From Kayfunavirus MT1B1P3: a DNA stretch of 40,159 bases. A program made the position numbers and the translations under genes. The notes under the pieces were generated by a model. It was not told where the DNA came from and ran no database searches. It worked only from the letters and a program-made list of their open reading frames with translations. Each line of letters starts with the position of its first letter. Position 1 is the first letter of the stretch. Below are positions 3,300 to 17,002 of the stretch, one piece after another. Location of the stretch: the sequence record OZ035815.1; one strand, written 5' to 3'.

Positions 3300-3535
3300 T
3301 CTCACAGTTCAAGAACCTCAAGTCTCCCCATAGGCCCTCTTTAAGTCCAGACCAAAGGCCCTACCCGTTACTACTCCTTGCAGTCACAGCCAGTCTGTCA
3401 TAAGGTTGGACCGATGGTCAGGACTTCAGGTCAACGATAGGTCTAGGCTATGGCTTATGGAAGGACGATAGGTAGAGGCTATAGGTCTTCTTTGAGTCTC
3501 TATCTGTATAGTGTTATAGTATAACATTACGTCCT
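3300..3535. other. inferred physical genome left end and collapsed terminal repeat
   Basis: tctcacagttcaagaacctcaagtctccccatagg at 3300 resembles the recalled T7 left-end sequence (TCTCACAGTGTACGGACCTAAAGTTCCCCCATAGG); flanked by cctacag-type short repeats on both sides, as in the T7 concatemer junction; exact boundaries not determinable. Confidence 0.4.
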
Positions 3536-3538
3536 ACA

Positions 3539-3662
3539 CCTACAGTCTCACTAACCTACAGTCTCACTAACCTACAGTCTCACTAACCTACAGTCTCACT
3601 AACCTACAGTCTCACTAACCTACAGTCTCACTAACCTACAGTCTCACTAACCTACAGTCTCA
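3539..3662. repeat. tandem array of a 16-bp unit (cctacagtctcactaa), 7 full copies plus one partial
   Basis: counted directly: units at 3539, 3555, 3571, 3587, 3603, 3619, 3635 and a partial at 3651-3662; analogous in position to the T7 short-repeat array next to the terminal repeat. Confidence 0.9.
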
Positions 3663-3812
3663 ACCATAAGACACCAACACCTACAGTCATAGATCTACAG
3701 TTACTAGACACAGAGCTATAGACTTAAGGTCCAAGACATGTTAGTCAAAGACTATATCCTCTTACACCATGAGGCCGACGATAGCTTAATCAGTATTATT
3801 TCAAATTACCTA

Positions 3813-9720: not shown

Positions 9721-9740
9721 CTAAACTATCACTATAGGAT
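9721..9740 (+). promoter_or_regulatory. phage RNAP promoter (phi1.1-like)
   Basis: ctaaactatcactataggat matches consensus. Confidence 0.65.
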
Positions 9741-9785
9741 TAGACTCAAGGTCATGACTCAAAGTCGTGGCCTTCATGATTAACC
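9741..9785 (+). promoter_or_regulatory. putative RNase III site (R1.1-like)
   Basis: tagactcaaggtcat...gtggccttcatgattaacc; resembles T7 R1.1 (aaggtcaatgagtggcctttatgattgacctt) from memory. Confidence 0.4.
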
Positions 9786-9815
9786 TTAAATAAACACTAC
9801 TGGAGATTTAACCAC

Positions 9816-9999: not shown

Positions 10000-10263
10000 A
10001 TGGGCCGACTTTATAGTGGCAACCTCAACGCTTTCAGAGCAGCGTGTAACAGGCTCTACCAGTTAGACTTCGCTGTTATATCTCAGGAGTTTCAAGACCA
10101 TGTGTCACGCCAAGAGTGCATGAGACTCAGGGTGGAGGACCGAGCTGGTAACATCTTCGCGCTTGAGACCTTCACACACTACGATGAAGACGTGCTGTAT
10201 AATACTGCAACCAACTACCTCAACGGTCTCGCTGACCATATCGACACATGGAGCAAAGCATAA
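10000..10263 (+). CDS. 1.2: inhibitor of host dGTP triphosphohydrolase (T7 gp1.2-like)
   Basis: N-terminus MGRLYSGNLNAFRAA...RLRVEDRAGN matches recalled T7 gp1.2 (MGRLYSGNLAAFKAA...RLRIEDRSGN). Confidence 0.8.
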   Translation: MGRLYSGNLNAFRAACNRLYQLDFAVISQEFQDHVSRQECMRLRVEDRAGNIFALETFTHYDEDVLYNTATNYLNGLADHIDTWSKA

Positions 10264-11339
10264 TGACAACTATTAAAACCAACCCGCACCGCGCTGTAGA
10301 TTACTCTGAGTCTGGCGTTAAGAAGGCACTGGAAGCAGCCGGGTCTCTGGAAGCTGAAGTGAAGTACGACGGTGTGCGACTGAATCTCCCGGTCCTGCGT
10401 GAAGGTGAGACCTACTGGTTGAGCCGTGAGTCTAAACCTCTTCCAGCCTTGGAGTGGATGAACTCTGAGTTAGGGAATGCGTGGACACAAGCTGACTGGC
10501 GATGGTTCCTGCGTCAAGCTGGCTACGAAGGTGTGGGCATGATGATTGATGGCGAGGTCATGGTCAAAGGTGTAGACTTCAACACCTCCTCAGGTCTCAT
10601 CCGCACGAAGTGGCTGAAGCCTAACAACGAGGAGTTCGCTGAATGCTATCCGTGGCGTGGTAAGAAGGTCCCGTTCTGGGCAGCCCGGTCAAGACTTCAG
10701 GTTGTGGTATACGGTGTCGTAGACATGACAACCATTGCTGACCCGAAAGCCGAAGGTCCTATCCATAGCGTCACACGCCTGAAGGCTGAAGCTATCGTCC
10801 CTCTCCTCCAGAAATACTTCCCGGAAATCGACTGGGTTCTGTCTGAGTCACACACGGTCTATGACCTTGAGTCGCTCAACTCCCTGTACGAAGAGAAGCG
10901 TCTGGAAGGACATGAGGGTCTGGTAGTCAAAGACCCGCTGGGTAAGTGGAAGCGTGGCAAGAAGTCAGGCATGTGGAAAATGAAGCCTGAGGATACCATC
11001 GACGGGACCGTATGCGGACTCGTGTGGGGGACTCCGGGTAAGGCTAACGAAGGTAAGGTCATCGGCTTCGAGGTTCTGCTGGAGGACGGAATGGTAGTTA
11101 ATGCTTGTGGTCTGACTGAAGAACAGAAGAACGAGTTCACAGCTAACGTCGCTGAATCTAGTGGTTATACCTTGGCTGGTGGCCATGTGGTTATTCAGGA
11201 TGGGACCGAGAAGATCAACCCATACGAAGGCTGGCAGTGCGAAGTCCTCTTCATGGAGCGGTTCCCAGATGGTTCCCTTCGTCACCCTAGCTTCAAGTGC
11301 TGGCGCGGAACGGAAGATAACCCAACTGTTAAGAGTTAA
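10248..11339 (+). CDS. 1.3: ATP-dependent DNA ligase (T7 gp1.3-like)
   Basis: 363 aa; adenylation motif KYDGVR near N-terminus; size and position match T7 ligase. Confidence 0.95.
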   Translation: MEQSIMTTIKTNPHRAVDYSESGVKKALEAAGSLEAEVKYDGVRLNLPVLREGETYWLSRESKPLPALEWMNSELGNAWTQADWRWFLRQAGYEGVGMMIDGEVMVKGVDFNTSSGLIRTKWLKPNNEEFAECYPWRGKKVPFWAARSRLQVVVYGVVDMTTIADPKAEGPIHSVTRLKAEAIVPLLQKYFPEIDWVLSESHTVYDLESLNSLYEEKRLEGHEGLVVKDPLGKWKRGKKSGMWKMKPEDTIDGTVCGLVWGTPGKANEGKVIGFEVLLEDGMVVNACGLTEEQKNEFTANVAESSGYTLAGGHVVIQDGTEKINPYEGWQCEVLFMERFPDGSLRHPSFKCWRGTEDNPTVKS

Positions 11340-12469: not shown

Positions 12470-12628
12470 ATGACCGAGGTTGAGAAGAAATACATCGTGG
12501 AGCTTGAGGGTCGAGTTCAGTCCTTCGAGGTTCCGGTGTACGCAAAGTCTCTTGAAGAGGCTACCCTGAAGTCCCAAGAGTATGAGGACGCTGGTTTTGT
12601 TGTCGGACGGATTCGTCCTGAGACCTAA
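12470..12628 (+). CDS. 2: inhibitor of host RNA polymerase (T7 gp2-like)
   Basis: [14 protein letters not shown]...GFVVGRIRP matches recalled T7 gp2 (SFEVPIYAETLDEA...GFEVTRVRP); ATG at 12470 has SD aaggag 9 nt upstream; ORF track extends to 12392 but without SD. Confidence 0.7.
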
Positions 12629-12645
12629 ACTATCACTGTAGGACA
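12624..12645 (+). promoter_or_regulatory. phage RNAP promoter variant (phi2.5-like)
   Basis: cctaaactatcactGtaggaca: one substitution at -3; gp2 stop codon is embedded in it. Confidence 0.45.
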
Positions 12646-12685: not shown

Positions 12686-13384
12686 ATGGCTAAAGAGCAA
12701 CTGAAGACTTTCACCACTCCGGTATCTGGTATCGTTGAGCCTTACGCATGGCTGAACAAAGCAGACACCAAGTTTAACGAGCGTGGTGAGCATAAGGTTA
12801 ACCTGACTTTCGACCTGAGCAACCCTAAGGTCCGTAAGATGATTGATGTCTTACAGAAGATTCACGACGATGCGTATGCGAAAGCACTCGCAGACCACGA
12901 GAAGAACCCACCTCAGGTTCAGCGTGGCAAGAAGCCTATTGAACCACGAGAAGGCGACATGCCGTGGATTGAGAATGGTGACGGTACTGTTACCCTTAAG
13001 TTTAAATGCTTTGCGTCTTACCTTAAAGACGGCAAGTCAGAGCCTATCGTATTACGGTTCTACGACACCGATGCTAAGTTAATCCGTGACGTCCCGAATA
13101 TTGGCGCTGGCTCAAAGCTGAAGGTCAAGTTTAAAGTCCTGCCGTTCAAGTGGAACGCTGCGACTGGTGCAAGCGTTAAGCTCCAGCTTGAGTCCTGCCT
13201 TCTGGTAGAACTGAAGGAATGGAAAGGTGATGGTGCTGGTGGCGATGGTGGCTGGGGTGATGATGAAGACCTCGGTACTGGCTACAAAGCGTCAACCGAT
13301 GGTGACTTCGGTGACGATGACTTCGGTGACGATGGTTCCGAAGGTGGTGACGACTCCAACTCTGGTGGCGATTACGACTTCTAA
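12686..13384 (+). CDS. 2.5: single-stranded DNA-binding protein (T7 gp2.5-like)
   Basis: 232 aa (same as T7 gp2.5); acidic Gly/Asp-rich C-terminal tail ending DYDF, like the T7 gp2.5 tail ending in F. Confidence 0.9.
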   Translation: MAKEQLKTFTTPVSGIVEPYAWLNKADTKFNERGEHKVNLTFDLSNPKVRKMIDVLQKIHDDAYAKALADHEKNPPQVQRGKKPIEPREGDMPWIENGDGTVTLKFKCFASYLKDGKSEPIVLRFYDTDAKLIRDVPNIGAGSKLKVKFKVLPFKWNAATGASVKLQLESCLLVELKEWKGDGAGGDGGWGDDEDLGTGYKASTDGDFGDDDFGDDGSEGGDDSNSGGDYDF

Positions 13385-13836
13385 TGGCCCAATGGTCTGC
13401 AAAACGGGGGCACTCTGTGGGTGCCTACCGCTCTGGACTTGAAGCCAAGAACCAGCAGTGGCTGGAACAGAATGGCGTCAAAGCGGAGTACGAAAGCCAT
13501 TATATCAACTATGTGATTCCGGCTTCCGACCACAAGTATACACCAGACTTTATCCTTCCTAACGGTATCATCGTGGAGACCAAAGGTATCTTCGATAGTG
13601 ATGACCGTAAGAAGCACCTTCTGGTACGAGAACAGCACCCAGAGTTAGACATCCGGTTCGTGTTCTCAAGTTCCCGCTCCAAGCTATACAAAGGGTCTCC
13701 GACCACGTATGGCGCATGGTGTGAAAAGAATGGCTATAAGTATGCCGATAAGTTCATCCCGGTTGAGTGGCTGAAAGAGGCGACTGTACGTCTGCCTTCA
13801 GGTATCCTCATCCCCAAGAAGAAAGGAGTTAAGTGA
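13384..13836 (+). CDS. 3: endonuclease I, Holliday-junction resolvase (T7 gp3-like)
   Basis: strong recalled similarity to T7 gp3 (YVIPAS.H.YTPDF.LPNGI.VETKG...SDDRKKHLL.REQHPELDIR.VFSSSR.KLYKGSPT.YG). Confidence 0.9.
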   Translation: MAQWSAKRGHSVGAYRSGLEAKNQQWLEQNGVKAEYESHYINYVIPASDHKYTPDFILPNGIIVETKGIFDSDDRKKHLLVREQHPELDIRFVFSSSRSKLYKGSPTTYGAWCEKNGYKYADKFIPVEWLKEATVRLPSGILIPKKKGVK

Positions 13837-14306
13837 TGACTCAGAAATATAGACTTAAGGTTAGTGGCTACGGGTGGCCTAAAGGCACTATCGTTACGAA
13901 ATGTGCGAAAGACCCTGCACCATCAAACGGACATACTCTGGTGGAATCCACTGAGCGTGGCACATACAAACACGGAGCAGCAGGTCATAACACTCAGCCT
14001 GATGGTATGTGGGGGGCGTGGGTTGTAAACGAAAATCTTGAGGAAATCGTAGAGGATAAACCTCAGGTCCTACCAGCCTCAAGCGTCCCTCCTGTCACCG
14101 TTAAACGTGAAGTCCTGACCATCAACAAGATTGGTGTAGGCCAGACGTTCATCGTCCACGGTAAGCCTGACGAAGTGTACGTGAAGATTAGCAACTCTCA
14201 CGTATTCAACCACAAGCGGCTACAGATGCACACGACTGACGCACAGCGCTTCCAGTCACATCTGAATCTTGTGGTAGTAGAACTGGTGGTGTACAATGGT
14301 AAGTAA
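13836..14306 (+). CDS. hypothetical protein (156 aa), accessory insertion between endonuclease I and lysozyme
   Basis: ATG at 13836 overlaps gp3 stop (tgATG) with SD aaggag upstream; no homolog recognised; T7 has no gene at this position. Confidence 0.5.
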   Translation: MTQKYRLKVSGYGWPKGTIVTKCAKDPAPSNGHTLVESTERGTYKHGAAGHNTQPDGMWGAWVVNENLEEIVEDKPQVLPASSVPPVTVKREVLTINKIGVGQTFIVHGKPDEVYVKISNSHVFNHKRLQMHTTDAQRFQSHLNLVVVELVVYNGK

Positions 14307-14754
14307 GGTACAGTTCAACCCACGGTCCCGGACTGACGCTATCTTCGTGCACTGTTCGGCTACCAAGCCAGAGATGGACATCGGGGTAGAGACCATCCGT
14401 ATGTGGCACAAGCAGCAAGGCTGGCTGGATGTAGGCTACCACTTTATCATCAAGCGTGATGGTACTGTGGAAGAGGGTCGCCCGGTAAATGTCGTAGGGT
14501 CACACGTTAAGGATTGGAACTCCCGGTCAGTAGGCGTCTGCCTTGTAGGTGGAATTGACGCTAAGGGTCAGTTTGAAGCTAACTTCACTCCAGCCCAGAT
14601 GAACTCCCTGCGCAACAAGCTGGCTGACCTGAAGGTCCTGTATCCTCAGGCAGAAATCAAAGCACACCATGACGTAGCACCTAAGGCGTGTCCAAGTTTT
14701 GACTTGCAACGCTGGCTGTCTACCAATGAACTGGTCACTTCCGACCGTGGTTAA
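14296..14754 (+). CDS. 3.5: lysozyme / N-acetylmuramoyl-L-alanine amidase (T7 gp3.5-like)
   Basis: strong recalled similarity to T7 lysozyme (DAIFVHCSATKP, WLDVGYHFIIKRDGTVE.GR, VGSH, GVCLVGGID, FTPAQM.SLR, HH.VAPKACPSFDL.RW, NELVTSDRG). Confidence 0.95.
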   Translation: MVSKVQFNPRSRTDAIFVHCSATKPEMDIGVETIRMWHKQQGWLDVGYHFIIKRDGTVEEGRPVNVVGSHVKDWNSRSVGVCLVGGIDAKGQFEANFTPAQMNSLRNKLADLKVLYPQAEIKAHHDVAPKACPSFDLQRWLSTNELVTSDRG

Positions 14755-14778: not shown

Positions 14779-14994
14779 ATGATTAAAATTATCGAATTTC
14801 TTGGTCGTCTGGTGGTGCGTGGGTATCGTCGTGCTGCGGTACTGGAACGAAAGGTAGAAAAGAAGAATGCGGACGGTGCGGCTGATGCTGCTGCTCTGGC
14901 TGACAAGCTGACCATCGCGTCACTGGAAGCTGGAATGAAGGCTCGTCAGGCTGATACCAAAGCTGACCAGTTGGCTCAGTTCTTCAAAGCCTAA
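14779..14994 (+). CDS. hypothetical protein (71 aa)
   Basis: ORF with SD (taagggag) upstream; Ala/Lys-rich; not similar to T7 gp3.8. Confidence 0.4.
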   Translation: MIKIIEFLGRLVVRGYRRAAVLERKVEKKNADGAADAAALADKLTIASLEAGMKARQADTKADQLAQFFKA

Positions 14995-15012
14995 ACTATC
15001 ACCTTAGGGATG
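14991..15012 (+). promoter_or_regulatory. phage RNAP promoter variant before gene 4
   Basis: ctaaactatcacCTtagggatg: two substitutions (-4, -3) relative to consensus; followed by hairpin gggaca...tgtccc. Confidence 0.4.
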
Positions 15013-15059: not shown

Positions 15060-16939
<1,880 letters not shown>

Positions 16940-16940
16940 G

Positions 16941-16985
16941 TCTAGACTCAAGGTCATTCACAGCGAGTGGCCTTTATGATTAGAC
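16941..16985 (+). promoter_or_regulatory. putative RNase III site upstream of DNA polymerase
   Basis: tctagactcaaggtcat...agtggcctttatgattagac, third copy of the conserved motif. Confidence 0.4.
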
Positions 16986-17002
16986 TAAACGGAGGATTAA
17001 CC

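Follow-up and report, generated by a model that had tools for sequence, protein, structure and literature searches.

Constant C-terminal domain and exchangeable N-terminal modules in gp3.2, a conserved hypothetical protein of K1F-like phages

Among the class II proteins of phage T7 are several that bind host factors: gp1.2 (an inhibitor of dGTPase), gp2 (an inhibitor of RNA polymerase), gp4.5, gp5.5 and gp5.9. Genes 3 and 3.5 of T7 (10257-10706 and 10706-11161) are immediate neighbours with nothing between them, as an earlier note on the DNA studied here, made from the letters alone, had said. In a number of other phages the same junction holds a further gene, named gp3.2 in K1F (CAJ29361.1) and EcoDS1, and 3.01 in CR44b and CR8. 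The K1F, EcoDS1 and CR44b products resemble the protein described below in their position between genes 3 and 3.5, in length (156-163 aa) and in two-domain layout, and are 72-82% identical to it in amino-acid sequence (76% for K1F gp3.2); they differ, however, in a strongly diverged N domain, where nucleotide identity to K1F is ~70% compared to 95-96% in the flanking genes. A second group – gp3.2 of Cronobacter phage Dev2 and ORF18 of the Citrobacter phages SH3, SH4 and SH5 (74-76 aa; PHROG 15211) – occupies this junction too. The proteins of this group are ~80% identical (aa) to residues 87-156 of the longer protein and keep its SNSH...QMH.T...RF motif, but they consist of the C domain alone, without linker and N module.

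The stretch of DNA analysed here (the window) is 40,159 nucleotides long and is 100% identical to MT496969.1 (Escherichia phage Mt1B1_P3, genus Kayfunavirus), of which it is the reverse strand. Within it gp3.2 is a plus-strand ORF at 13836-14306 – 156 codons and a TAA stop (14304-14306), specifying a small protein of 17 kDa – flanked on the same strand by gene 3 (endonuclease I, 150 aa in the ORF listing, 13384-13836; Pfam Phage_endo_I, 2.4e-81) and gene 3.5 (lysozyme / N-acetylmuramoyl-L-alanine amidase, 14296-14754; Pfam Amidase_2, 2.4e-16). Coordinates and flanking Pfam matches confirm the 156-aa ORF that the earlier note had placed between these two genes, and its account of the start, a tgATG overlap preceded by a good Shine-Dalgarno sequence, also agrees with the DNA: the A of the ATG at 13836 is common to the endonuclease I stop (TGA, 13834-13836, within TGATG at 13834-13838) and AAAGGAG is read at 13822-13828 (plus strand), 7 nt 5' of the ATG. 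At the other end, the gene 3.5 ATG at 14296 produces an 11-nt overlap with the 3' end of gp3.2, and the ribosome-binding region and start codon of lysozyme lie within the last gp3.2 codons. As an aside on the neighbouring annotation, the endonuclease I CDS in MT496969.1 (QNJ49157.1) uses an internal start and is 139 aa long, while the Pfam match spans residues 1-147 of the 150-aa ORF, whose start at 13384 adjoins the stop of gp2.5; the start given in the record probably lies too far downstream.

The operon context is that of a single 2.5-3-3.2-3.5-3.7 unit bracketed by two plus-strand copies of a phage-RNAP promoter, members of one direct-repeat family. The nearest copy upstream of genes 2.5-3-3.2-3.5 (12622-12644; consensus CTAAACTATCACTATAGG, 10 copies in the family) precedes gene 2.5; the next (14988-15010) precedes the primase/helicase gene and thus sets the downstream limit of the gp3.2 transcription unit. 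Between promoters 12622 and 14988 there is no Rfam match, and terminator-like matches occur at chance level only. Over the window as a whole the promoter consensus (CTAAACTATCACTATAGGGA, 20-23 nt) has about 11 copies, all on the plus strand and each 5' of a gene block (2697, 6395, 9718, 11422, 12622, 14988, 20858, 23700, 24699, 29342 and 36618).

Other repeats are present in the window. About nine tandem 16-bp units (ACCTACAGTCTCACTA) fill a non-coding stretch at 3506-3678, probably near the genome end or the early region. An element of ~50 nt (TAGACTCAAGGTCAT...GTGGCCTT.ATG.TTAAC) recurs at 290-352, 9733-9795 and 16935-16997, the second copy overlapping the 3' end of a phage promoter copy; the copies form strong predicted hairpins (z = -5.3, -4.05 and -2.6 vs shuffles) that look like RNase III-type processing sites. 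The 5' end of gp3.2 (13838-13861) resembles 3707-3730 over 24 nt. This likeness was rejected as the mark of a paralogue (no ORF relation) and as an RNase III-type site (folding no better than shuffled, z = -0.24), and is judged to be chance.

The gp3.2 ORF is already annotated in MT496969.1, as 'hypothetical protein' QNJ49156.1. With an annotated CDS there and named counterparts (gp3.2, 3.01) elsewhere, the idea of a phage-specific or novel insertion falls: gp3.2 is a conserved hypothetical gene of K1F-like phages that has been annotated for some twenty years. The earlier note had called the ORF unrecognised, which is right for Pfam, NCBIfam, PADLOC and PDB sequences and wrong for phage families, since PHROG 16385 (function unknown) matches over the full length (E = 4.3e-95; residues 1-156 vs profile positions 1-157 of 157). 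Relatives were found by tblastn in ~220 phage records, 57 of which cover at least 80% of the query; 15 among the matches listed are full-length matches of the N-terminal type carried by the window (type 1, below). A word-indexed search of 5.8 billion proteins returned 255 clusters, nearly all from contigs of ~39-41 kb, and HMMER, run exhaustively over 1.84 billion cluster representatives, returned 17 of them only: together these results confine the family to K1F-like phages and a few neighbours, which include Caroctavirus CR8 and Providencia phages. One record, MT350292.1 (L040; 'Enterococcus phage EFA-1', UNVERIFIED_ORG), is a typical Kayfunavirus that is 92.8% identical to the window here; its Enterococcus faecalis host label is probably an error or contamination.

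Synteny is strict. A survey of the 3/3.5 junction in related phages, one of the checks proposed in the earlier note, found every homologue examined between endonuclease I and lysozyme; even the most divergent members (~33% identity in the C domain) stand directly after Phage_endo_I and before Amidase_2. Conservation in ~220 records, together with the retention of amino acids while synonymous changes accumulate (19 genomes), argues that the ORF is a real gene, beyond a chance open frame.

What is new here is the architecture: a swappable, fast-evolving front half and a near-invariant back half. On the plus strand of the window an N-terminal module of type 1 (aa 1-72; 13836-14051) is followed by a Pro-rich linker (aa 73-86, EDKPQVLPASSVPP; 14052-14093) and a constant, basic C-terminal domain (aa 87-156; 14094-14303). 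Structure prediction, also proposed in the earlier note, proved informative for the N module, for which AF2 confidently gives a five-stranded, SH3-like beta-barrel; this barrel can be superposed on SH3-type structures and so belongs to that fold class; the AF2 model of the C domain reaches only low confidence (pLDDT 61). The invariant scaffold of the type-1 module comprises GWP, T.VT.C..DP, LV and HG..G..Q. Alignments give the linker a dN/dS of ~0.1-0.2 with high dS, and its Pro-rich core (PQVLPASSVPPVT) is common to most N-module forms and missing from the short form. An SH3-binding role for the linker was considered and rejected, there being neither a class I nor a class II PxxP motif. In the C domain the motif VG..F...Y...SNSH.FN....QMH.T...RF is invariant (alignments A2 and A3), the pI is 9.8 and the net charge is +4; PHROG 15211, a 74-aa family, matches aa 87-156 only (E = 2.1e-40), and in Dev2-type phages this domain alone is the whole protein (74-76 aa).

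In alignments, and in ORFs extracted from some 40 loci, at least eight unrelated N-terminal module types, or none, precede this one near-invariant C domain. The N part is missing from proteins of 74-76 aa (Dev2, SH3/SH4/SH5 and many others); it is of type 1 (GWP.GTIVTKC...HG..G..QP.GMWGAWV) in proteins of 156-163 aa (the window, K1F, EcoDS1, CR44b), of type 2 in proteins of 149-156 aa (L011-L013, P0127), and of types 1 and 2 in tandem in proteins of 226-227 aa (P0090, P0118, P0120, P0121). Four or more other unrelated modules are found in proteins of 134-155 aa (PRF-SP4, L021, P0126, P0130, P0137). Seven metagenome protein entries (P0123, P0124, P0132-P0136) are frameshifted, internally deleted or contig-end chimeric forms of gp3.2 – in P0123 the N domain is read in another frame – and so are not true variants of the architecture. 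Some relatives carry an additional ORF downstream. In the Salmonella phage PRF-SP4 (OL773676.2; L004, 1751-2200) a gene for an HNH homing endonuclease (Pfam HNH_3, 3.1e-14; PHROG 59) lies between gp3.2 and lysozyme, so that this junction also receives mobile endonucleases. In the Providencia-type contigs of the most divergent branch (L030, 4456-4812; Logan contig SRR31019977_6544) a 118-aa ORF, for which no family match was obtained, separates the gp3.2 homologue from the amidase.

Module swapping takes place on closely similar backbones. The short form, with no N module, is found in loci (L022, L024) whose endonuclease I and lysozyme genes are 94-99% identical to those of the window, and the type-2 module in loci (L011, L013) whose flanks are 95-97% identical; modules have turned over recently compared with the backbone. 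Mean nucleotide identity, measured against the window, is ~95% in endonuclease I, 68-86% from codon 1 to about codon 84 of gp3.2, 85-96% over the rest of the C domain and ~95% in lysozyme, and GC3 is 0.42 in the N domain compared to 0.59-0.61 in the flanks.

Selection regimes were compared among 19 genomes with the type-1 form, using median pairwise Nei-Gojobori values; candidate sequences of this type number at least 57 GenBank records and more than 100 protein clusters from Logan and ENA contigs. The C domain (dN/dS 0.10, median dN 0.045) and the linker (0.11, 0.116) stand beside endonuclease I (0.09, 0.009) and lysozyme (0.09, 0.019), the value for the N domain being 0.48 (median dN 0.28). 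The C domain, with a dN/dS like those of the two enzymes, is accordingly under strong purifying selection. That its conservation reflects an overlapping nucleic-acid signal was rejected, since its synonymous sites are free to vary (median dS 0.42). Within the N domain, changes counted by parsimony on a neighbour-joining tree are distributed unevenly over 71 sites: 29 show zero nonsynonymous changes despite 45 synonymous ones, and 23 show at least five nonsynonymous changes each (sites 8-12, 16, 24, 28, 30-31, 33-34, 39, 41, 43, 49, 51-52, 64-67 and 72). The hypervariable positions are mostly in loops. Pooled dN/dS at the 23 variable sites, picked post hoc, is 1.24; with classes predefined from the AF2 model it is 0.37 for strands and 0.64 for loops, and no single N-domain site gave significant positive selection in the 19 sequences (best p ~0.065). 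Given the post hoc choice of sites and the lack of a significant one, diversifying selection on the N domain is suggested but falls short of proof, and the loops may vary because constraint is relaxed and not because of an arms race.

These patterns bear on a further claim of the earlier note, that gp3.2 is an accessory gene acquired horizontally. For the N half (aa 1-72) it holds up: this half is a divergence island with a GC3 of 0.42 vs ~0.6, and is swapped or absent on near-identical backbones. It does not extend to the C half, which is found at the gene 3/3.5 junction even in the most divergent members, has the dN/dS of the flanking enzymes and behaves like a vertically inherited, lineage-wide element fixed at that junction.

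Our preferred hypothesis, held tentatively and with a probability of roughly 0.4, is that gp3.2 is a non-enzymatic two-barrel adaptor whose constant domain engages a conserved partner and whose N module engages a variable host factor; that it binds, what each domain binds and any tie to defence are what we infer. According to this hypothesis gp3.2 would belong to the middle (class II, DNA-metabolism) period and share one transcript with gp2.5, endonuclease I and lysozyme, would be translationally coupled to both neighbours, and would consist of two small beta-barrel modules and the conserved Pro-rich linker. The C-terminal module would carry the core activity by way of one conserved partner: nucleic acid, a candidate because the C domain is basic, or some conserved machine of phage or host. 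The N module would be an exchangeable add-on that binds a variable, strain-specific host factor; as a modular adaptor, gp3.2 would then help to take over the host or to counter its defences. The invariant polar motif of the C domain (SNSH..QMH.T) could, on the other hand, be an active site and not a binding surface. A more specific version of the adaptor, which we regard as doubtful, is a 'plug-and-play' counter-defence or host-takeover protein: the C barrel would dock on a conserved machine, recombination at the linker would swap N-terminal binders, hypervariable loops would diversify, and each module would neutralize a different strain-specific host factor.

Alternatives to the adaptor begin with gp3.2 as an accessory factor that binds nucleic acid in recombination, replication or transcription, a role which we consider possible though unlikely. 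The protein would then work with gp2.5, endonuclease I and lysozyme (the last as RNAP inhibitor), its basic C-terminal barrel binding DNA or RNA and its N module tuning specificity. Membership of a DNA-metabolism operon with strict linkage to genes 3 and 3.5 speaks for this explanation, as do the charge and pI of the C domain and fold neighbours that include barrels known to bind nucleic acid, namely the Hpy99I N-terminal barrel, KOW/Spt5, KorB-C, the TnsB C-terminus, L2 and EF-P; as regards the C domain it is compatible with the adaptor. Far less probable is a role in lysis, either as a cell-wall helper of the amidase (for example SH3b-like peptidoglycan binding in trans) or chiefly as a translational-coupling leader by which the dose of lysozyme is set. 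No Pfam SH3b family (SH3_3, SH3_5 or others) matches at E <1, and eukaryotic SH3, KOW and nuclease barrels score equally well or better, which argues against a helper; a pure leader, for its part, has no need of 70 near-invariant residues at a dN/dS of 0.1 with synonymous sites free, and the insertions that separate gp3.2 from lysozyme in PRF-SP4 and the Providencia-type contigs show direct coupling to be dispensable.

That gp3.2 is a relocated T7-family gene (2.8 or 3.8, both HNH homing endonucleases), another homing endonuclease or a chance ORF is refuted. The homing endonuclease at the junction in PRF-SP4 lends the second of these some plausibility, but Pfam detects neither an HNH or GIY-YIG nor any other nuclease domain in gp3.2, and no paralogue exists within the window. 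The earlier note had named clear homology to a relocated T7-family gene, such as 2.8 or 3.8, among what would overturn its view; the gp3.2 profile, run against all 638 six-frame ORFs of T7 with filters off (hmmsearch --max), gave a best E of 3.1, so that gp3.2 is absent from T7 and is neither gene moved. A chance ORF is excluded by purifying selection and conservation in ~220 genomes. An HNH (beta-beta-alpha-metal) finger in the His/Asn-rich motif of the C domain (SNSHVFNHKRLQMH) was likewise rejected, because its spacing and the places of the predicted strands are wrong for such a finger and HNH profiles give no match; within the motif H122 and H132 are invariant, and H126 and H142 variable. 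Broader searches point to no catalytic or other known family in Pfam, NCBIfam, PADLOC or PDB sequences: the sole Pfam match is a spurious Cu-oxidase_3 (0.038, under its cut-off), PADLOC-DB defence-system profiles gave 0 families at E <=1, a BFVD viral structure search returned only uncharacterized phage proteins, and the type-2 middle module, used as a query in a large protein search, yielded no candidates. A search of the literature on gp3.2, Kayfunavirus and accessory-gene screens found no experiment or paper on gp3.2 function, and gp3.2 sequences are absent from the supplements of one published screen of this kind.

How, then, does the adaptor compare with known systems? The N module shares the fold of the SH3-like small-barrel class (eukaryotic SH3, KOW, Tudor, the Hpy99I N-terminal barrel, FeoA) without sequence membership in Pfam – SH3, SH3b, KOW and Tudor families give no match at E <=1 – and differs from it in a long beta3-beta4 loop and in a linker that has no canonical PxxP; fold class alone does not define the ligand. 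Like the T7 class II accessory proteins, gp3.2 is small and, in so far as no catalytic family was detected, non-enzymatic, has its gene among those for DNA metabolism and is missing from some relatives; unlike them, it has no similarity to any T7 ORF, and we know of no described T7 counterpart to its constant/variable two-module architecture. If the 'plug-and-play' version were true, gp3.2 would represent a hitherto undescribed family of modular accessory proteins in phages. Within an operon that is otherwise 95% conserved, the N part of gp3.2 is the most sharply marked divergence island, a pattern that makes gp3.2 a reasonable candidate for strain-specific interaction between phage and host in a genus of wide use in phage therapy (K1F, LM33_P1, CLB_P1, Mt1B1_P3). 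Natural near-isogenic variants already exist in which the module is present, missing or exchanged, and with these the question can be tested cheaply. As a gene gp3.2 is ordinary: the useful result is an invariant C domain fused to an exchangeable N barrel.
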